Part shown: positions 300 to 9,041 of the stretch, piece by piece
How positions within the stretch are numbered: the first letter of the stretch is position 1
Layout of the letters: every line of letters begins with the position of its first letter
The notes under the pieces: model-generated
Seen by the model: only the letters and a program-made list of their open reading frames with translations
Told to the model about the DNA's origin: nothing
Databases searched by the model: none
NCBI GenBank assembly: GCA_050012475.1
Contig: JBEKHC010000098.1
Coordinates: 1-18,000 of the forward strand
Direction: 5' to 3'
DNA length: 18,000 nt
Source: Candidatus Velthaea sp.
Lineage (GTDB): Bacteria; Vulcanimicrobiota; Vulcanimicrobiia; Vulcanimicrobiales; Vulcanimicrobiaceae
Program-made: the position numbers and the translations under genes

Positions 300-399
300 T
301 CCGCTTCCGTAAGCGACTGCTTTCCTCGTGCACGTCGTTGCGTGCGTCGCGGCGCTTGAACGAAAAGCAGCGTCTTCCGATGCCGGGCCGGTAGTGCCA
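300..399 (+). promoter_or_regulatory. Conserved structured 5' leader, copy 1 (candidate cis-regulatory RNA)
   Basis: Aligns by eye with 2506-2599. Hairpin CGCTT-ccgt-AAGCG (302-315); stem CTGCTTT/AAAGCAG (317-323/364-370) enclosing hairpin GCACG/CGTGC; 3' tail GTCTT.CG..GCCGGG-CCG.TAGTGCCA; ends 39 nt before ATG 439. Confidence 0.55.
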
Positions 400-438
400 G
401 GGTGATATCTCCCTCCCTTTTGTACGTAGAGGCTCGAT

Positions 439-897
439 ATGAATGAATCTCTTCGCTGCTGCGTGCAGCGAATACGCGTTCGGACCTTGCTCGTTGCATG
501 TCTCGCGCTCGTTCCCGCAGCCTGCGGGGGCGGCAGCGGGGGCAGTTCGCCGGTTTCGACTGCTCCCGGCCCGTCACCGTCGCCGACGGTTAAGCCGACG
601 GCAGCTCCGACGGCTGCACCGGTACCGGTTTCAACGGTCACCGTGAGCATCCCAGCGCTGGCGTTCAACGGTCCGGCACAGACCGCAACCTTCACCGCGA
701 CGTCGTCCACCGCATCGGCGCTGACGGCGACGGCGGGAACACCGGCCGTGGCTACGGTCGCCGCGAGCGCGGTTGCGGGCCAGTTTACGGTGACGTCCGT
801 CGCCGCCGGCACGTGCACGATCACGGTTTCCGATGCGAAAGGCGGCAAAGCCACCCTCGTCGTCACAGTGACGACCTTCCCGATCACGGTGAATTAG
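439..897 (+). CDS. Small lipoprotein: Pro/Thr linker, one Ig-like beta-sandwich domain, C-terminal TTFPITVN strand
   Basis: GAGG 7 nt before ATG; basic N-region, hydrophobic stretch and lipobox-like PAA|CGGG; Thr/Val-rich alternating beta pattern (FTVTSVAAGTCTITVSDAKGGKATLVVTV); N-terminus clearly paralogous to 2631..3017. Confidence 0.8.
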   Translation: MNESLRCCVQRIRVRTLLVACLALVPAACGGGSGGSSPVSTAPGPSPSPTVKPTAAPTAAPVPVSTVTVSIPALAFNGPAQTATFTATSSTASALTATAGTPAVATVAASAVAGQFTVTSVAAGTCTITVSDAKGGKATLVVTVTTFPITVN

Positions 898-899
898 CA

Positions 900-2192
900 A
901 TGAAGCGCAACATGCATCACTCGGCCGCTTCCATCGCGGCGCTGAGCTTCGCGGTTCTCGTTAGCGGGTGCAGCGGCGGCGGCAGCACGACGCCGGCGGT
1001 CATGGCACCGGCAACCGGAGTCGCCATCGCCAACGGTCAGGTCAAGGCGAAACTCACGATTAAGATCCCGCTGCACAAGGCCGGCACTGCGTCGAAATCG
1101 GCGCGCCGCTCGCCGCAGTACGTTTCGACGCATACGTTGGGAATCGGAGTCCAGACCGGGACGACGGCGACCGTCAGCAGCGCGCCGTGGCAGCTCTTCG
1201 ACGTCTCGGGTACGGCGACGCAGTCGCCGAACGCGAGTTGCACGACCGATCCGGCGAGCACGGTTCGCAGCTGCGTTCTCACGGTCACGGCACCCGCCGT
1301 TCAGGGCGGAACGGACCAATTCATTATCGATGCGACCGATGTCGCTCCCCTGGCGACCGATACCCAGCCTAACGGTAACATTCTTTCGAACGCCAATACC
1401 ACAGAAACGGTAGTCGAGGGAACGGCGAACGCGTTCAGCGTTTCGCTGACCAGCGTCATCGGTTCGCTCGCCATGGCGACAGCAGCCGGTGCGGTCGTAG
1501 CGACGCCGGTCTATAGCGTCTGGTCTCCGCCCGGAACGCCGGCAAACATCGGCGTGGACATCATCGCGAACGATATCGACGGCGGCCAAATCTTCGGCAA
1601 CCCGCCGTCGTTCAACAATCCCATCACGTTCAGCGACACGCTCGCAGCGGCATCGCCGTTCACGTATCCGAGTGGGAGCGCAAGTCCGTTCATTCTCGGT
1701 CTGCCGCCGCCGCAAACCCCGGGCCCGATTCCGGCGACGATCGTTTACACCCCGTCGGCGAGTATCACCGCCGTGCCGTCGGCAACGGTCACCGTCAGCA
1801 CGAGTTACCCCAGTTATCTCCAGCCGCCGGTAACGCCGCCGGCGACAACGTTCACGCTCAACGCAATGACCGTCAGCGTGGGTGGTGTTCCCATCGGTTC
1901 AATTCCCGGACTGACCATGGGTGGTGCGCCCGCTGTGGTTCTGGTCAACGAAGCGAACGCCACGAGTTTTACGATCTCCGATAACGCAGCCGCCCAAGCT
2001 GCGGTGCGGCTGGCCTCCAATGCACCGGGATTTCCTAACCTACCGATACCCGCGACGATACCGGCTGCCGGCGGCACCGCAGCATTTGCCGTCGTCCCGG
2101 TAGCGCCGTCGGCCGCTGGGGCCGCACCGGTGATTACGATAACCGACGCATCCGGAACCGTCGCAACGGTGTCGACAGCCGTCGCGCCCTAG
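900..2192 (+). CDS. Large beta-rich surface lipoprotein (paralog A), function unknown
   Basis: ATG at 900 (2 nt after the upstream stop) gives signal peptide MKRNMHHSAASIAALSFAVLVSG|C. Collinear motifs shared with 3019..4314: KLTIKIP, P.Y.S, PWQ.FDV, CT.DP....C..TVTAPAV.G.TD.F, GNP..F.NPI, VNE.N, ITD..GT.AT. Confidence 0.85.
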   Translation: MKRNMHHSAASIAALSFAVLVSGCSGGGSTTPAVMAPATGVAIANGQVKAKLTIKIPLHKAGTASKSARRSPQYVSTHTLGIGVQTGTTATVSSAPWQLFDVSGTATQSPNASCTTDPASTVRSCVLTVTAPAVQGGTDQFIIDATDVAPLATDTQPNGNILSNANTTETVVEGTANAFSVSLTSVIGSLAMATAAGAVVATPVYSVWSPPGTPANIGVDIIANDIDGGQIFGNPPSFNNPITFSDTLAAASPFTYPSGSASPFILGLPPPQTPGPIPATIVYTPSASITAVPSATVTVSTSYPSYLQPPVTPPATTFTLNAMTVSVGGVPIGSIPGLTMGGAPAVVLVNEANATSFTISDNAAAQAAVRLASNAPGFPNLPIPATIPAAGGTAAFAVVPVAPSAAGAAPVITITDASGTVATVSTAVAP

Positions 2193-2237
2193 GTTTCGCA
2201 CCGCTAACGCGACCTTCACCGTCGAAGTCCTAGGACC

Positions 2238-2271
2238 AAGCCCGGAGCGTTTGCTCCGGGCTTTCTTTTTT
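2238..2271 (+). terminator. Rho-independent terminator of cassette 1
   Basis: 11-bp stem AAGCCCGGAGC/GCTCCGGGCTT with GTTT loop, followed by TCTTTTTT, 45 nt after stop 2192. Confidence 0.9.
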
Positions 2272-2505
2272 CGTATTTCGTACCACGACCGAACCAGTAT
2301 TCTGATTCGTTCGCTTTCATGCGCCGGGCGTACCATGTACCGTTATTGTCGTGCGGCAGCGGTAGCACCGGATGCAGCACCGCTGCGGCCAAACGGCCCT
2401 TTTTTCGGGACCATGCGCTAACGCGGAAAGTCCCGGTCCCTTGGCACTAACGCAGAGCATAGAGCTACTTCGCAACGGAAACGTTAGAGGATGTAAACTT
2501 TCGCA

Positions 2506-2599
2506 TCTGCTCACGTGAGCGATTGCCCCCACAGCCCTACCGTCCACGGACGGTGCACAACGGGAGCAATGTCTTGCGCAGCCGGGTCCGCTAGTGCCA
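2506..2599 (+). promoter_or_regulatory. Conserved structured 5' leader, copy 2 (candidate cis-regulatory RNA)
   Basis: Hairpin TGCTC-acgt-GAGCG (2508-2521); stem ATTGCcCCC/GGGaGCAAT (2522-2530/2562-2570) enclosing hairpin ACCGTC-cacg-GACGGT; same 3' tail as copy 1. TGGCACTA (2442-2449) can pair with TAGTGCCA (2592-2599). Ends 31 nt before ATG 2631. Confidence 0.55.
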
Positions 2600-2630
2600 C
2601 TCGAATTCAAAAGTAACGTAAAGGTTTGAA

Positions 2631-3017
2631 ATGATTGATTACCTTCGCTGCCGCATGCGGCGTGCACGCGTTCGGGCCGTGCTCGCCGGATGTCTCGCGC
2701 TTGTGCCGGCAGCTTGCGGCGGCGGGGGCAGCAGCGCTCCGGCCAGCCTCTCCGTTCCCGTCGTAGCCGCCAGTCCCACGCCGAAAGCGTCGCCGACCGT
2801 CGCGCCGACGACTGCTCCCACAACGGCGCCGACGACGACGCCAACCGTAGCGCCGACCACGGCTCCGACCACCGCCCCAACCGTCGCTCCGACCACTGCG
2901 CCGACGGCGACACCAACCGCAACGCCGACCGCTACCCCCATCCCGACCGCAACACCCACCGCAGGACCCACATCGGTCCAGGTGCCCATCACCGTCCAGA
3001 GCGAGAAACTCAAATAA
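2631..3017 (+). CDS. Small lipoprotein consisting of a Pro/Thr repeat stalk and a short C-terminal beta-strand (SVQVPITVQ)
   Basis: AAGG 6 nt before ATG; signal peptide paralogous to 439..897 (LRC...R.RVR..L..CLALVPAA|CGGG); no globular domain visible. Confidence 0.8.
   Translation: MIDYLRCRMRRARVRAVLAGCLALVPAACGGGGSSAPASLSVPVVAASPTPKASPTVAPTTAPTTAPTTTPTVAPTTAPTTAPTVAPTTAPTATPTATPTATPIPTATPTAGPTSVQVPITVQSEKLK
2793..2966 (+). repeat. 12-nt coding tandem repeat (PTxA/PTAT units)
   Basis: 12 consecutive PT-x-x tetrapeptides (2793-2936), then PI, then two more units; synonymous positions vary between units. Confidence 0.9.
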
Positions 3018-3018
3018 G

Positions 3019-4314
3019 ATGAACATTCGCATGCAAAAACAAATCGGTATCGCTGCGGTTGGCGTCGCGTTTCTCGCCAGCGGCTGCAGCGGCGGCAGCA
3101 GCAGCTCCGCCGTCGTTCCGGCAGCGGGCAAAACCGCGGTTGCCAAGGGAACAACGGTCAAGTCCAAACTCACGATCAAAATTCCCGTTCGCAAGCGCGC
3201 AGCTTCGGCGAAAGTCTCGCCGAAATACATCTCTCCGTCGACATCGGGTCTTTACATTCAAGCGGGTGTGCTGGGCAGCATCACTTCGAGCACGCCCTGG
3301 CAGGCCTTCGACGTCACTCCCGCGTCATCAACGACCGCGTCGCCGATTGCCAGCCAACAATGCACCCTCGATCCAACCAATACGTTTACCATCTGCACGG
3401 TGACGGTCACCGCTCCCGCGGTCCCAGGCGCGACCGATGAGTTCCAGATCGTCGCCACGGACTGGGCGCCGACTCCCGCGCAAGCGCTGCTGAACACGTC
3501 ACCGATCGGCCTGATCGATGAAGCCCTCGATGACATCGGTGCGAACGGCGCGGGCGAGCCGATCGCCGCCGGAGCGACGAATGCCATCACCGTAACACTC
3601 GATGGCTACGTCGGCCGGCTGCAAGCCTCACCGGTCAGCGTTTGGGCCGCGCCCGGCACGTCGACATTATTCGACGGCTACATCCAAGCTACCGACGCGG
3701 ATTACAATCTCATCGCCGGAAATCCGTCAGCTTTCGTCAATCCGATTGTCGTGAGCGGTGCCGCGGGAACGCCGATCAGCAATTTCCCCGACCCCAGTAC
3801 ACTGACGCCGCCGGCGACCGCGGCGGCCCCTTCGATCTACGCCCAAATGACGTACACGGCGCCTCCGGCGAATCAAGGCATGGCGCCGGTCACAACCGTC
3901 AACGTTACGGCTCCTCAACCGGCTTGGATCGCGGCTCCGACCGCACCCTCGGGATTTGCTCCGCAAGTGTTGTCGCCCTCGACGACACTGGAAATCGATC
4001 CGATGACCGTCAATGCGATCGTGCAATCGAACGCAACGCCGATCGGCGCGATCGACCTCAGCAACGGCAACGTCACTGTGATGGTCAATGAAACCAATAT
4101 GGCTACGCTGACGGTCACCGAGCAGCCGTCAAACACGCCACTGACCGCGACGGTAACGAATGCCGGCACCGCAAACGCCAGCGCTCAGTTCACGGTTCTT
4201 GCAACCGATCAGTCGACGTCGATCGTGATAACCGACGATCGGGGCACGACGGCGACCTTGCCGGTCGGCGCGCCGCCGCCGACGACCTCCGCGCTTCACC
4301 GCGCTCGGGTCTAG
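3019..4314 (+). CDS. Large beta-rich surface lipoprotein (paralog B), function unknown
   Basis: Starts 1 nt after the upstream stop; lipobox LASG|C; collinear similarity to 900..2192, including the conserved Cys pair; followed by a terminator. Confidence 0.85.
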   Translation: MNIRMQKQIGIAAVGVAFLASGCSGGSSSSAVVPAAGKTAVAKGTTVKSKLTIKIPVRKRAASAKVSPKYISPSTSGLYIQAGVLGSITSSTPWQAFDVTPASSTTASPIASQQCTLDPTNTFTICTVTVTAPAVPGATDEFQIVATDWAPTPAQALLNTSPIGLIDEALDDIGANGAGEPIAAGATNAITVTLDGYVGRLQASPVSVWAAPGTSTLFDGYIQATDADYNLIAGNPSAFVNPIVVSGAAGTPISNFPDPSTLTPPATAAAPSIYAQMTYTAPPANQGMAPVTTVNVTAPQPAWIAAPTAPSGFAPQVLSPSTTLEIDPMTVNAIVQSNATPIGAIDLSNGNVTVMVNETNMATLTVTEQPSNTPLTATVTNAGTANASAQFTVLATDQSTSIVITDDRGTTATLPVGAPPPTTSALHRARV

Positions 4315-4324
4315 TCCAACCTCT

Positions 4325-4360
4325 GGGGTCCGCGCTGCGGCGCGGACCCCGTTCTTTTTT
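4325..4360 (+). terminator. Rho-independent terminator of cassette 2
   Basis: 11-bp perfect stem GGGGTCCGCGC/GCGCGGACCCC with TGCG loop, followed by GTTCTTTTTT. Confidence 0.9.
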
Positions 4361-4374
4361 CTAACGAGCAATCT

Positions 4375-5217
4375 ATGTTGAACAAGCTGAGCGCAGCGTT
4401 CGCCTGCGCACTGGGACTGGGACTTGCCGGCTGCGGCGGCGGCAGCGGCGCAGCGGTACACATCGCAACGCCGGTCCAAACGACGAGCCAATCGCTGACG
4501 GCATTCAAGACCCAATGGGGCATGGAGCTTTCGCCAGCGCAGGTCTGCAGCAGCGACATTTCCGCAGCGACCTCGACCCACGCGAGCGTGATCCGCGTGC
4601 AGTATCTGCCGGCACTGCAACCCCGGACGTGCTATGACGGCATCTATGCGACGGCAAAACATGCCGGCCTCAAGGTCCTGTGGATCACGCCGGCGGTCGA
4701 TCTGAACGCGCCGGTCGATCCGGCGAGCTATGCCCGGATCATGGCCGCGGCCGCTCGCAGCTATCCCGGCAGTACTTGGGAACTCATGAACGAGCCCGAT
4801 CTGCACCAGCCCGATATCAGCGACTATTGGAACGACGAGGCCCTCGCCGAACGACAGTACCTGTCGATCGCGACGGCAGCGGCACCGGCGATTCATGCCG
4901 CCGATCGCACCGCGGTCGTCATTTCTGGCGGACCCAGCGGATTCGAATCGAACAATCCGAGTTTGCCCTGGCTGCATGCGACGCTGCCGTTAGCGCCGCT
5001 CGTCGACGGCGTGAGTTTTCATCCGTACTCGGGCGTCAATCTTCAACAGATTCACGCCATCGGTCAGCTCTGGAACAAGCCGGTCTACATTACGGAGTGG
5101 AGCACGGACAACGGCGGCATCATCGAAGCGTATCTCGCGGCCTACAACGGCGTCGTTCCGCTGTTCAACTACTGCGGCCAAGCCTGCAATCGAACGGCCG
5201 TGCCAATTTTCCCGTAG
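4375..5217 (+). CDS. Lipoprotein, clan GH-A glycoside hydrolase (GH5/GH39-like TIM barrel)
   Basis: Lipobox LAG|C; acid/base motif WELMNEPD, VISGG, DGVSFHPY and nucleophile motif KPVYITEW occur in the order typical of clan GH-A. Confidence 0.8.
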   Translation: MLNKLSAAFACALGLGLAGCGGGSGAAVHIATPVQTTSQSLTAFKTQWGMELSPAQVCSSDISAATSTHASVIRVQYLPALQPRTCYDGIYATAKHAGLKVLWITPAVDLNAPVDPASYARIMAAAARSYPGSTWELMNEPDLHQPDISDYWNDEALAERQYLSIATAAAPAIHAADRTAVVISGGPSGFESNNPSLPWLHATLPLAPLVDGVSFHPYSGVNLQQIHAIGQLWNKPVYITEWSTDNGGIIEAYLAAYNGVVPLFNYCGQACNRTAVPIFP

Positions 5218-5276
5218 CCGTACGGCTGCGGCACTGCACTCGAGAAGAACGTAACGCGATATCAGCAGCCACGAAA

Positions 5277-5311
5277 CGAGGGAGTCCGGCGCAGCGAGCC
5301 GGGCTCCCTCG
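5277..5311 (-). terminator. Strong hairpin between convergent genes, probable terminator of the ABC operon
   Basis: 14-bp stem CGAGGGAGTCCGGC/GCCGGGCTCCCTCG (one T-G on +), 7-nt loop; only a short T run (TTTCGT) follows on the minus strand. Confidence 0.6.
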
Positions 5312-5404
5312 ACGTTATCTTATCGATACGTGCGGCTTCGGCGAACCCGAAACCCGACAGACGGTGCGAAGCGCCGCCCTTCTAAGCTAAGTGAATGGCG
5401 GCCT

Positions 5405-6403
5405 TCAGTGAATCTCGGCCTTCTCCCACACAGCGTGCGTCCACGCGCCGGTTGGTTTTTTGGTGATGACCGGTTCGCTCTTGCCCCCCATGAGGACTTG
5501 CACCGTCCGGTTTGCCGCCGCCTCGTCGAGATACCCCAGCCCGCGCGGGCTGCCGGCAACCAGCTTGGCGATCTCGGACATCATGCGCGTCTGATGCGCC
5601 GCCGTTTGTGACCCGGCCGTATCGTTCGCCAGCACGATCTTCACCGCTTCGTCTTGATGCGTGAGCGCATACTGCCAGCCTTGCATCGATGCCTTGAGAA
5701 AGCGCGCCAGCCGGTCGACGGCGGCCGGATCTTTGAGCTCCGATTCGGTTGCATACAGGCCGTCTTCGAGCGTTGCCACGCCTTGGTTCTCATATTTGAA
5801 GACGGTGAGATCGTCGGGTTTCATGCCGGCTTCGATGAGCTGCCAGTATTCGTTGTACGTCATCGTCGAGATGCACGCCGCTTGTTTCTGCAGCAGCGGA
5901 TCGACGTTGAAGCCTTGTTTGAGCACCGTGACGCCGTCGGCGCCGCCTGTCGTCGGATAATTGAGCTTGCTCATCCACGCCAGAAACGGATACTCGTTGC
6001 CCGAGAACCAGACCCCGAGCGTCTTGCCCTTGAAATCGGCGGGCGTTTTGACGCCGCTGTCGTTGCGGCACGTCAGTTCCATCCCTGATTTCTGAAAGAC
6101 TTGCGCGATGTTGACCAGCGGCAGTCCTTTCTCGCGCGCCGCGAGCGCCGAGGGCATCCAGTCGACGTCGACGTCGGCGCCGCCGCCGGCCATAACTTGG
6201 GCCGGGTTGATATCGGGACCGCCCGGCTTGATGGTCACGTCGAGTCCGGCGGCCTTGTAGAAGCCTTTCGCCTCGGCCACGTAGTAGCCGGCAAACTGCG
6301 CTTGGGCGACCCATTTCAGCTGCAGCGTCACGTGATCGGCAGCCTGCGCGGGACCGGCGACGGCGCACAGGCAGGCCGCGCTCAAGAAGAGTTTCTTTAT
6401 CAT
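5405..6403 (-). CDS. ABC transporter substrate-binding protein, NMT1/THI5 (SsuA-like) family, probably pyrimidine-binding
   Basis: Signal peptide ending AQA|AD; motifs LQLKWVAQAQFAGYYVA, GLDVTIKPGGPDI, KQGFNVDPLLQKQA, TMTYNEY, ATLEDGLY; GGGG Shine-Dalgarno-like sequence upstream. Confidence 0.92.
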   Translation of the reverse strand: MIKKLFLSAACLCAVAGPAQAADHVTLQLKWVAQAQFAGYYVAEAKGFYKAAGLDVTIKPGGPDINPAQVMAGGGADVDVDWMPSALAAREKGLPLVNIAQVFQKSGMELTCRNDSGVKTPADFKGKTLGVWFSGNEYPFLAWMSKLNYPTTGGADGVTVLKQGFNVDPLLQKQAACISTMTYNEYWQLIEAGMKPDDLTVFKYENQGVATLEDGLYATESELKDPAAVDRLARFLKASMQGWQYALTHQDEAVKIVLANDTAGSQTAAHQTRMMSEIAKLVAGSPRGLGYLDEAAANRTVQVLMGGKSEPVITKKPTGAWTHAVWEKAEIH

Positions 6404-6413
6404 TGCGTTACCC

Positions 6414-7274
6414 CTATCGGCGTTTGGAAAGCGCGAGTTTTTGAAAGGACGGATGCCAAAACAAGACCGTTCGTTCGAGCAGCGCGAGCAAGGCGAAGCA
6501 GGCCGACCCAGTGATTGCCGCCAGCGCGATCTCGGCCCACACCACGTCGAGGTCGAGCCGTGCTGCTTCGGTTGAGATGCGAAACCCCATGCCGACGATC
6601 GGCGTGCCGAAGAATTCCGCGACGATGGCGCCGATGAGCGCGAGCGTAAAGTTGAGTTTGAGCGCGTTGAACACGAACGGCAACGCGGCGGGTAAGCGCA
6701 GCTTCACCAGCGTCTGCCAATAGCTCGCGCCGTACGACTGCATGAGATCGCGTTCCATCACGCCCGTGCCGCTCAAACCCGCGACGGTGTTGACGAGCAT
6801 CGGGAAAAACGTCATCACCGCAGCGACGGCGGCTTTCGAGGGCCAATCGAAACCGAACCACATGACCATGATCGGCGCGATGCCGACGATCGGCATCGCC
6901 CCCAACAGGCCCGCGATCGGCAGGACGCCTCGGCGCAGAAATGCCGAACGGTCGAGGGCGATCGCGGTGAGGTACCCCGCGGCGCAGCCGATGGCGTAGC
7001 CGGGCAGCACCGCCCGGATGACGGTTTGCACGAAATCCGCCCACAGCATGGGCAAGTGCGCGACGAAGGCTTGCGCGATCCCGGTCGGCGCCGGCAAGAG
7101 CACGCGCGGCACGCCGAAGCCGACGCAAATGACTTCCCAGCACCACAGCAGCAAGAGGCCGAAGAGCAGCGGCGTGGCGATCAAGAAGGCTTGCCCGTCG
7201 CGCGCCGCCAGGCGGACGAGCGCGAAGCAGCCCAGTGCCACCGATGCGAGCAGAACGATGCCGGCCGCGATCAC
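6414..7274 (-). CDS. ABC transporter permease (NitT/TauT family)
   Basis: Multiple hydrophobic segments, EAA-like loop DLMQSYGAS..QTLVKLRLPAALP, LIGAIVAEF. Start taken as GTG 7274, overlapping the upstream TGA (GTGA coupling), rather than the ORF-track start 7373. Confidence 0.9.
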   Translation of the reverse strand: MIAAGIVLLASVALGCFALVRLAARDGQAFLIATPLLFGLLLLWCWEVICVGFGVPRVLLPAPTGIAQAFVAHLPMLWADFVQTVIRAVLPGYAIGCAAGYLTAIALDRSAFLRRGVLPIAGLLGAMPIVGIAPIMVMWFGFDWPSKAAVAAVMTFFPMLVNTVAGLSGTGVMERDLMQSYGASYWQTLVKLRLPAALPFVFNALKLNFTLALIGAIVAEFFGTPIVGMGFRISTEAARLDLDVVWAEIALAAITGSACFALLALLERTVLFWHPSFQKLALSKRR

Positions 7275-8128
7275 AGGCGGCCGCCGCGGCTCGCGATCAG
7301 GATGCGCTGCGCGCCGTCGGCAACCGCGACGGCCAACAGGGTGAGCAGCGCCGCCGTGACGAGCGCGGCCCAAATCTGGAGCGTTTGGCCGTAGTACGAA
7401 CCCGCGAGCAGCCGTGCGCCGAGCCCCGCCTGCGCACCGGTCGGTAATTCAGCGACGATCGCGCCGACGATCGCCAGCGTGGCGGCGACCTTGATGCCTG
7501 CAAAGAGAAAGCCCATCGACGCCGGCCAGCGCACTTTGGCGAACACGGCGCCGCCGCTCGCGTTGTAGGTGCGCATGAGATCGAGCTGCATGCGGTCCGG
7601 TGCGCGCAGCCCGGTCACCATCGCGGTGGTGATCGGAAAAAAGCTCAGCCAGCCGGCGATGAGGGCCTTGGGCAACACCCCGGTCAGGCCGATGTTGCCC
7701 AGCACCACCACGACCATCGGAGCGATCGCGAGCACCGGGATCGTCTGACTGGCGATCACCCACGGCATGAGCGAGCGGTCGAACACGCGCACATGAACGA
7801 TGGCGACCGCGAGACCGATCCCGACGACGAGTGCGAGCGCCAAACCCAGCGCTGCCGTCGCCGCCGTCACCCCGGCGTGATACAGCAGACTGCGCGGCGA
7901 GCCCAGGGGTTCGCCGAACATCCCGGTCAGCACGCTGTTGGCGACTTGATGCGGCGCCGGCAAGAGCGGACGCTCGAGCGACCAGGCCGCGCGGACGATC
8001 GCGCCGGCCGAGGCGCCGTTGCCTGCCGCCGCCGTCGCGGCGCTGTAGTTCAGCCCGATCGCCGCGAGATACCACATGCCGACGACGGCGCACAGCACGG
8101 CGAGCACGGGTGCCGCGCGCTCAATCAT
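7271..8128 (-). CDS. ABC transporter permease (NitT/TauT family)
   Basis: LLPAPHQV, SQTIPVLAIAP, DLMRTYNAS, IVGAIVAELPTGAQAGLGARLL; overlaps both neighbours as in an operon. Confidence 0.9.
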   Translation of the reverse strand: MIERAAPVLAVLCAVVGMWYLAAIGLNYSAATAAAGNGASAGAIVRAAWSLERPLLPAPHQVANSVLTGMFGEPLGSPRSLLYHAGVTAATAALGLALALVVGIGLAVAIVHVRVFDRSLMPWVIASQTIPVLAIAPMVVVVLGNIGLTGVLPKALIAGWLSFFPITTAMVTGLRAPDRMQLDLMRTYNASGGAVFAKVRWPASMGFLFAGIKVAATLAIVGAIVAELPTGAQAGLGARLLAGSYYGQTLQIWAALVTAALLTLLAVAVADGAQRILIASRGGRL

Positions 8129-8939
8129 AGCTTTGACCGGCGTGCAGCGCCGTTCGCACCTCGTGCGCGACGCGCAAGAACTCCGGGGTGTCGCGGATGT
8201 CGAGCGGACGATCGCCGGGAAGGTCGTTGGTGATGATGTCGACGATCCGGCCCGGATGCGGCGACATGACCACGATGCGCGTCGAAAGATACACCGCTTC
8301 GGGAATGGAGTGGGTGACGAAGACGACGGTCATCCCGGTGCGCCGCCACAAGTCGAGCAGATGCACGTTCAGACCGTCGCGCGTGATCTCGTCGAGCGCG
8401 CCGAACGGCTCGTCCATCAGCAGCAGCGCCGGTTCGAAGCTCAACGCGCGCGCGATCGATGCGCGCTGCTGCATTCCGCCCGAGAGCTGCCAGGGAAAGC
8501 GCCGGCTGAAGTCGCCCAAGCCGACGAGGTCGAGATTGCGCTTGGCTCGCGCGCGCCGCTCGTCGGGAGCCAGGCCCATGATCTCCAGCGGCAGCATCAC
8601 GTTGCGCTCGACATTGCGCCACGGATAGAGCGCCGGCGCCTGAAAGACATAGCCGTAGGCGCGCTCGCGCCGGGCCTGGGCGGGCGTCTTTCCGTTGACG
8701 ACCAAGCTGCCGCCGGTCGGGTGGTCCAAATCCGCGATCGCGCGCAGCAGCGTCGTTTTGCCGCAGCCCGAAGGTCCGATGAGCGAGATGAATTCGCCGC
8801 GGCGAATGCTCAGATCGACGTCGGTGAGCGCGACCGTGCGGTGCTCGTTCGAGCTGAAGATGATGCTGAGATTACGCGCTTCGACGACCACTGCTGTAAG
8901 CGGCGGGAGGGTCTGCACGATTACGGCATCCTGCTGCAT
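8121..8939 (-). CDS. ABC transporter ATP-binding protein (NitT/TauT family)
   Basis: Walker A GPSGCGKT, Q-loop YVFQ, signature LSGGMQQR, Walker B LLLMDEPFGALD, H-loop VTH. Start placed at ATG 8939 (MQQDAV), which is uncertain. Confidence 0.95.
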   Translation of the reverse strand: MQQDAVIVQTLPPLTAVVVEARNLSIIFSSNEHRTVALTDVDLSIRRGEFISLIGPSGCGKTTLLRAIADLDHPTGGSLVVNGKTPAQARRERAYGYVFQAPALYPWRNVERNVMLPLEIMGLAPDERRARAKRNLDLVGLGDFSRRFPWQLSGGMQQRASIARALSFEPALLLMDEPFGALDEITRDGLNVHLLDLWRRTGMTVVFVTHSIPEAVYLSTRIVVMSPHPGRIVDIITNDLPGDRPLDIRDTPEFLRVAHEVRTALHAGQSYD

Positions 8940-9041
8940 CGGCTCAGACGACGCGCGAAGACCAGGGCATCGGGTCCGCTTTGGCCAGCACCGGGGAAAA
9001 CCTTTGGCCAAAACGGTCGCGCCCGCGCGCGAAGGCGAACG

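Follow-up and report, generated by a model that had tools for sequence, protein, structure and literature searches.

A duplicated leader region with compensatory changes in two predicted helices precedes tandem lipoprotein operons of Candidatus Velthaea sp.

The lipoprotein cassettes and their leader elements

We analysed an 18,000-nt stretch of DNA from Candidatus Velthaea sp., an uncultured peat bacterium (positions 1 to 18,000 of contig JBEKHC010000098.1, assembly GCA_050012475.1; hereafter the window), in which two tandem gene cassettes are each preceded by a related leader element of approximately 100 nt. The contig (C98) has a G+C content of 64% and belongs to a genome of 5.36 Mb (G000). 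Each of the two cassettes comprises a short Pro/Thr-rich predicted lipoprotein (open reading frame (ORF) A), a predicted lipoprotein of ~430 residues (ORF B) and a terminator-like site. The leader elements, copy 1 at 300-399 and copy 2 at 2506-2599, consist of a hairpin (hairpin A), a second helix (stem B) that adjoins it with one A between, and a conserved 3' block. A third copy, described below, lies in a second genome of the genus (G003). The features of the two cassettes are as follows:

302-315, plus strand: hairpin A of copy 1, 5 bp with a 4-nt loop
316-371, plus strand: stem B of copy 1, 316-325 paired with 362-371 around a variable interior hairpin
372-391, plus strand: conserved 3' block of copy 1, common to the three copies
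392-399, plus strand: tail TAGTGCCA of copy 1, also in copy 2 and not in the G003 copy
424-432, plus strand: conserved ACGTA, then Shine-Dalgarno-like sequence AGAGG (copy 1)
439-897, plus strand: ORF A1, predicted lipoprotein of 152 residues; signal peptide with Cys, Pro/Thr-rich linker and small beta-rich C-terminal part
900-2192, plus strand: ORF B1, predicted lipoprotein of 430 residues, paralog of B2
2238-2272, plus strand: intrinsic terminator-like site at the end of cassette 1
2400-2440, plus strand: T-run and GGGAC...GTCCC inverted repeat, 76% identical to G003, with no counterpart before copy 1
2441-2505, plus strand: conserved upstream stretch, candidate promoter region; 58% identical to G003, its last 55 nt 60% identical to copy 1
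2508-2521, plus strand: hairpin A of copy 2
2522-2570, plus strand: stem B of copy 2, 2522-2532 paired with 2560-2570, interior hairpin 2538-2555
2571-2599, plus strand: conserved 3' block and tail of copy 2
2616-2624, plus strand: ACGTA and Shine-Dalgarno-like sequence AAAGG (copy 2)
2631-3017, plus strand: ORF A2, predicted lipoprotein of 128 residues, mainly Pro/Thr repeats (PT repeat, E 0.02, below the cut-off)
3019-4314, plus strand: ORF B2, predicted lipoprotein of 431 residues with three beta-sandwich domains in a structural model
4324-4361, plus strand: intrinsic terminator-like site at the end of cassette 2

The repeat was noticed in a preliminary description of this DNA, and its coordinates, the identities of 17/25 in the 5' block and 24/29 in the 3' block, and the spacers of 39 and 31 nt that separate the elements from the start codons are all exact. 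Aligned locally, copies 1 and 2 score 47, a value reached by 2 of 20,000 random 94-nt windows of the genome, and the 3' pattern, with up to three substitutions allowed, occurs in the genome at just these two sites. Four two-sided changes distinguish the helices of the copies: T306-A311/C2512-G2517 in hairpin A, and C317-G370/T2523-A2569, T322-A365/C2528-G2564 and T323-A364/C2529-G2563 in stem B. The preliminary description had listed these changes correctly, together with the wobble pair T2508-G2521 and the mismatch C2527-A2565, and had left out two mismatches of copy 1, C324-A363 and A316-C371. The hairpin that it placed in the interior of stem B is predicted in both window copies. An 8-bp inverted repeat, TGGCACTA (2442-2449) and TAGTGCCA (2592-2599), flanks the copy 2 region; it is probably incidental, because none is found around copy 1 or in G003.

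Base pairing in three copies

A covariance-model search of related genomes, which the preliminary description had recommended, found one further homolog, in the same genus. The model, made from the two window copies, retrieved G003:C216:395-481 on the minus strand (31.5 bits, E 1.7e-5). The score alone is at noise level, because with a later model even a coding stretch of G000, from a hydrogenase-like gene, scores 32 bits (E 2e-5). We accept the match as a copy because it lies 39 nt upstream of the sole other close ortholog of ORF A; among the 348 genomes of the family, such orthologs were found in G000 and G003 only. The G003 homolog of ORF B, on a separate contig, is 61% identical to B2.

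Hairpin A of the G003 copy retains 5/5 pairs, with a new T-A pair at its base where the window copies have C-G and T-G, and stem B is kept with one deletion. The unpaired residues fared differently. The loop sequence CGT, the AACG motif and TAGTGCCA, all proposed to be conserved, are indeed present in both window copies, but the G003 copy has the hairpin loop GCAT and has neither AACG nor TAGTGCCA. Because G003 lost them, the presumed contact residues are mostly not conserved, and the idea that conserved unpaired positions contact a ligand is not supported; part of the 3' block is kept.

Over the three sequences, 35 of 38 cells are paired and 5 of the 13 pairs are compensated; slid control structures are 40-47% paired. 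All 26 pairwise differences at paired sites (11, 7 and 8) are transitions, compared with 11/19 at unpaired sites. For copy 1 versus copy 2, transitions make up 11/11 of the differences at paired sites, 1/5 at unpaired sites and 22-57% at fourfold-degenerate sites. When columns were shuffled and the best two helices searched freely, five compensated pairs were obtained in 4/3000 cases. Random placement of the changes in the held-out G003 copy gives p values of 0.005-0.007, 0.02 and 0.07 at transition shares of 0.35, 0.6 and 0.8, respectively. Under a star-tree null that keeps the substitutions per branch, the probability of at least five compensations is at most 3e-4, also when changes are confined to variable sites and to transitions; by helix, the values are 0.0002-0.03 jointly for hairpin A and at most 0.004 for stem B. 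The star-tree figure is generous, because the structure was fixed beforehand.

Statistically, and for three sequences only, hairpin A and stem B appear to have been kept through compensatory change. The earlier proposal of selection is supported as far as pairing goes, in that the held-out G003 copy pairs and the five compensated pairs of 13 exceed three nulls; it is limited in that it rests on three related sequences. R-scape-type covariation tests have little power in small alignments (PMC7214042). Judging from the alignment, we consider it probable that the base pairing is under selection.

A proposed role for the leader, and the alternatives

We hypothesize that the element is a lineage-restricted, structured 5' leader that sets the stability of the operon mRNA or binds a protein, a reading that we hold tentatively as the best available. 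Most likely, the helices would fold constitutively in the leader at the 5' end of the operon mRNA. This structure may shield the transcript from 5'-end-dependent decay, or may offer a site to an RNA-binding protein, and would thereby set the level of an abundant surface protein. That 5' secondary structure stabilises mRNA by blocking RppH and RNase E is known (PMC3997798).

By analogy, the most plausible mode of action for the element is that of structured leaders on surface-protein mRNAs. The 5' stabiliser stem-loops of ompA and papA in E. coli and of aprE in B. subtilis likewise form a structured 5' region before an exported or surface protein, and likewise have no terminator, no ligand-type conservation and a lineage-specific sequence. 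In contrast to the ompA type, which has one terminal hairpin, the element has two helices and a variable interior. The likeness is not meant as sequence homology, and the defining 5'-terminal position is only putative for the element: hairpin A cannot be placed firmly at the 5' terminus because no common -10 box lies just upstream.

The promoter is probably located in the conserved stretch just upstream of the element, and may be read by an alternative sigma factor. An unrecognised alternative promoter is likely because the genome has 32 matches to sigma-70 region 2. With rough gene calls and the consensus patterns known to us, no promoter common to the three copies was found; a TANNNT hexamer at 2494-2499 would suit copy 2 but is unmatched in the other two copies. 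In one RNA library (X12), a 172-nt contig at 2535-2706 spans the interior of stem B into ORF A2, near-continuous contigs follow from there to 4104, and another contig runs from 433 to 663. These contigs are consistent with transcription of the 3' part of the leader together with ORF A2. Among the 32 of 132 pieces listed, none covers 901-2520 or 4501-5400, and such contigs cannot show absence or a transcript start.

Several observations weigh against the proposed leader function. The alignment consists of three related, mosaic sequences, two of which, copies 1 and 2, had served to choose the structure. The test on the held-out G003 copy weakens to p 0.07 when transitions make up 80% of changes, and all three compensations in stem B fall on the copy-2 branch. 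The ensemble predicted for the whole G003 leader lacks stem B (P 0.00), and single-strand folding of the two window elements on the plus strand is unexceptional (z 0.25 and -0.22). No conserved sigma-70-type -10 box was found just upstream in all copies. The X12 contig at 2535-2706 is unstranded, has a depth of 4.4, comes from one library and may hold DNA. The modest identity of the leader blocks, the literature on small alignments and template switching, and the strand preference of stem B point the same way, and are given below with the alternatives that they favour.

The strongest of these alternatives, which we nevertheless regard as unlikely, is residual similarity without RNA function, left by duplication and gene conversion, with template switching at quasi-palindromes mimicking compensation. 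As our preferred reading also holds, comparison of the sequences shows that a two-gene lipoprotein operon (A-B) was duplicated in tandem, that the two window copies are its paralogous 5' regions, and that the cassettes later exchanged sequence. The exchange is apparent because the G003 copy is a mosaic: it resembles copy 2 through hairpin A (0.68, 0.62, 0.79) and copy 1 from stem B to the ribosome-binding site (RBS; 0.89, 0.77, 0.68), and the switch falls at the junction of hairpin A and stem B, leaving both helices whole, which speaks for the leader function. Identity at fourfold sites is 56-59% over codons 1-35 of ORF A (16-17 sites) and 43-49% in ORF B, with saturation at 32%. The leader blocks, at 56-81% (16-18/25 and 9-13/16), are slightly above these synonymous sites. 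Judged in this way, the sequence conservation of the leader needs no special cause. Mosaic copies and unremarkable folding energy also fit residual similarity, template switching can give rise to multibase compensatory mutations (PMC8794818), and phylogenetic covariation confounds small alignments (PMC11234323). However, both helices and three branches contribute compensated pairs, and the 48 block columns hold one gap only. Furthermore, the interior of stem B has decayed to shuffle-level similarity, and the arms, 31-38 nt apart, still pair around it.

Homology between copy 2 and G003 begins at ~2400, approximately 100 nt upstream of the element as first delimited, and the block at 2400-2440 is better kept than the element itself. 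Before copy 1, a repeat that is present 21 times in the genome takes the place of this far upstream block. Repeats resembling repetitive extragenic palindromic elements occupy 42-185, with a 23-nt unit at 90 and 122 (21 genome matches) and another of 19 nt at 42 and 167 (5 matches), two substitutions being allowed. On the contig of a near-identical strain (L027), a lactate permease gene precedes the copy 1 repeat.

The conserved block at 2400-2440, with its invariant arms, and the 32 sigma-70 region-2 matches would also suit a control region that acts as DNA, with an alternative-sigma promoter and palindromic operators (hairpin A, GGGAC/GTCCC). This reading is improbable, since both arms of the helices change together, as expected of pairing and not of protein contact. 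Upstream of genes, the palindrome of hairpin A shows no enrichment (63 sites versus 63 on the reverse strand, 59 expected; rough gene calls), and the GGGAC pattern has 5 other matches in 347 genomes, 4 of them within long frames, versus 3 for the reversed control. No sigma consensus known to us fits the three copies.

Strand is the issue for a further, rather improbable explanation, namely a minus-strand small RNA, antisense or divergent, that overlaps the 5' region of the operon and could regulate by pairing. Among the ten leading rungs of stem B, the non-Watson-Crick cells (5/5) are A-C on the plus strand and read G-U on the minus strand, where the stem has 10-11 contiguous rungs. Across the 13 pairs, G-U occurs once on the plus strand, at the terminal position of copy 2 hairpin A. 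Consensus folding favours the minus strand (-19.7 versus -16.7), on which copy 2 takes the structure first proposed for the plus strand. Against this, the mismatches amount to ~4 independent events versus 1 (binomial p ~0.2), copy 1 folds better on the plus strand, the distance between element and RBS is fixed, and a conserved minus-strand -10 box and a minus-strand terminator are both absent here. The stem B mismatches are compatible with a minus-strand RNA or a strand-neutral DNA hairpin, and at this number of events the preference is not significant.

The preliminary description had likened the element to riboswitches or protein-binding leaders. In a new, narrowly distributed riboswitch, or in a protein-dependent switch, hairpin A would alternate with a longer helix formed by its 3' arm with the 3' block. 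This helix is compatible in 16/18 cells, with one A-U/G-U/G-C series, and in copies 1 and 2 it differs from the hairpin A state by no more than 1 kcal/mol. However, it is ~10 kcal/mol worse in G003 and was rejected as not significant (joint p 0.05-0.30). RBS accessibility is the same between the two states in copies 1 and 3 (0.60/0.60 and 0.38/0.36; copy 2, 0.67/0.45). Terminators and U-runs were sought in the three leaders and not found. Pairing between the conserved CGGGCC and the RBS region is possible in copies 1 and 3 and poor in copy 2; by eye the anti-RBS helix looked good, but it is no better than in shuffled or other RBS-like windows (p 0.10-0.87). A helix between the 3' block and the interior of stem B, equally good by eye, is at chance level (p 0.08-0.82) and not copy-specific. 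Two other candidates were discarded as well. The genome encodes csrA, but two of the three leaders are without the GGA motif expected of a CsrA-bound leader (counts 0, 2 and 0), and the short frames of a possible leader-peptide attenuator, judged by eye, start at differing places in the three copies, with no terminator.

The leader is probably not a ligand-sensing switch, because it has no conserved terminator or RBS-masking alternative. Of four riboswitch features open to assessment here, three are absent: conserved pocket residues, an expression platform and spread, the element having been found, in the genomes searched, before one gene pair of one genus only. The resemblance to a riboswitch class is therefore not upheld, and a switch of this kind is very improbable. 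Its proponents could point to the downstream surface proteins, presumably a class often controlled by cyclic dinucleotides, and to the absence of an Rfam match. The preliminary description could not assign a known riboswitch class, and the Rfam 15 scan that it suggested agrees: at E up to 10, the window has 8 matches, all below the gathering score and all outside 300-399 and 2506-2599, and no match with E up to 5 lies over the G003 copy (L028). The cyclic di-GMP (c-di-GMP)-I riboswitches (RF01051) and their relatives likewise stand before surface or adhesion-type genes, and we take the GCCGGG-bearing 3' stretch to resemble c-di-GMP-I loosely. The element differs from them in having no Rfam match, no expression platform and no spread across taxa. 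A c-di-GMP-I search of G000 gave no match, its controls included, and is uninformative. Also rather improbable is the joint claim of either a new class of cis-acting RNA switch of Vulcanimicrobiota, in which a bound small signal or protein would exchange hairpin A for the alternative helix and control a lipoprotein operon whose large subunit may polymerise in the manner of a type V pilin, or an antisense RNA with this fold on the minus strand as the regulator of the operon. A true switch would constitute a new regulatory RNA class, and the evidence points away from it.

Two further systems offer partial likenesses to the proposed structured leader. The put antiterminator RNAs of phage HK022 are two stem-loops with one unpaired base between them, near the transcript start; the element likewise has two stem-loops separated by one base, and no Rfam sequence match. 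Processive antitermination would have no evident use here, because the operons are shorter than 2 kb and each has its own terminator. Orphan cis-regulatory motifs of the CMfinder type likewise combine conserved intergenic structure, compensatory changes and one gene family downstream. In contrast to these, the element is represented by three sequences from two genomes, far below the usual depth, and it illustrates cleanly, on a small scale, how much of a covariation claim three sequences can carry. If the proposed leader function is correct, it would give a modest first view of how a little-studied phylum of soil and peat, Vulcanimicrobiota (Eremiobacterota), controls its surface proteins after transcription. 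A full-text literature search for Eremiobacterota together with riboswitch returned no paper, and we found no published description of the element in the literature, where motif tables in supplements could hold a similar one.

Distribution, gene products and neighbouring features

The models R1 and R2 were run on 151 genomes of the class, 151 of the phylum, 239 chosen genomes of the family and the three other genomes of the genus. Some genomes belong to more than one set, many are incomplete, and scoring was limited to the best 26-150 candidates in each. Beyond G000 and G003, the family, class and phylum searches yielded no credible copy, and the element was found before one gene pair only, in two genomes of one genus. 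Inspection covered all 10 non-window matches in the class, 9/10 and 9/18 matches in two genus searches (the remainder of the latter had E >= 0.18), the single new match in the phylum, and all 13 and all 4 matches in the family searches. The other matches lie mostly inside reading frames. Two possibly intergenic ones (L140 and L141) were set aside because the motif is absent, and a similar-looking match in G301 (L159) lies inside a dprA-like frame.

Sequence searches agree with this narrow distribution. Searching G000 with blastn and nhmmer found no third copy, and the exact 3'-block pattern has 0 matches in 60 relatives and 0 in genome_contigs; a related gapped pattern has 0 in viral_contigs. 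A pattern scan of metagenome_contigs gave 3 matches, namely the copy 1 counterpart of the near-identical strain (L027) and two without the 5' half. The loci near weaker A and B homologs (38 and 54, overlapping sets) hold no copy.

Three stretches met during these searches are of separate interest. The weak match at L140 (G315:C220:23441-23529) is an apparently non-coding structured stretch unrelated to the element, and the dprA-like gene at L159 (856-1792, minus strand) is apparently split across two frames. The nearest B homologs in another genus (L061/G359, L062/G355 and L063/G374) are preceded at ~200 nt by a different conserved leader, in which several helices are predicted and one hairpin of 5 bp is invariant.

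ORF A1 has no Pfam match and is predicted to be a lipoprotein from its sequence. Within codons 5-11 of ORF A, a hairpin of 6-8 bp is predicted in all three copies (452-472, 2647-2663 and L028), one position of which is T-A, T-G and C-G across the copies. The B proteins, 43% identical between B1 and B2, belong to a family found in 95/348 genomes of this bacterial family; close homologs on record are P0002, P0003, P0005 and P0006. An AlphaFold model of B2 from 21 sequences has a predicted local distance difference test score (pLDDT) of 81; an earlier model was poor (pLDDT 56). The top structural matches of the model are immunoglobulin-like tandems (Z 7.9, root-mean-square deviation (rmsd) 4.8, 158 residues aligned). 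The N-terminal domain weakly resembles several Bacteroidetes fimbrial proteins (3r4r: Z 6.7, rmsd 3.4, 115 aligned), and the first domain of the B lipoproteins has weak type V pilin matches to 3r4r, 3gf8, 3liu, 3up6, Mfa2 and Mfa3 (Z 5.2-6.7). These matches are a mere hint, because all Z scores are below 8; on the model, the B proteins could possibly form a pilin-like polymer. In the B lipoproteins, an N-terminal strand is followed by a disordered basic stretch (B2 residues 60-73), and some relatives have NHL or phosphoesterase domains added to B.

Downstream of cassette 2, a third predicted lipoprotein (4375-5217) has a weak match of glycoside-hydrolase type to Cellulase PF00150 (E 1.6e-4, below the cut-off) and a paralog on contig C13. 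It is followed on the minus strand, at 5405-9011, by an ATP-binding cassette (ABC) transporter operon with an NMT1/THI5-like binding protein (E 2e-42).

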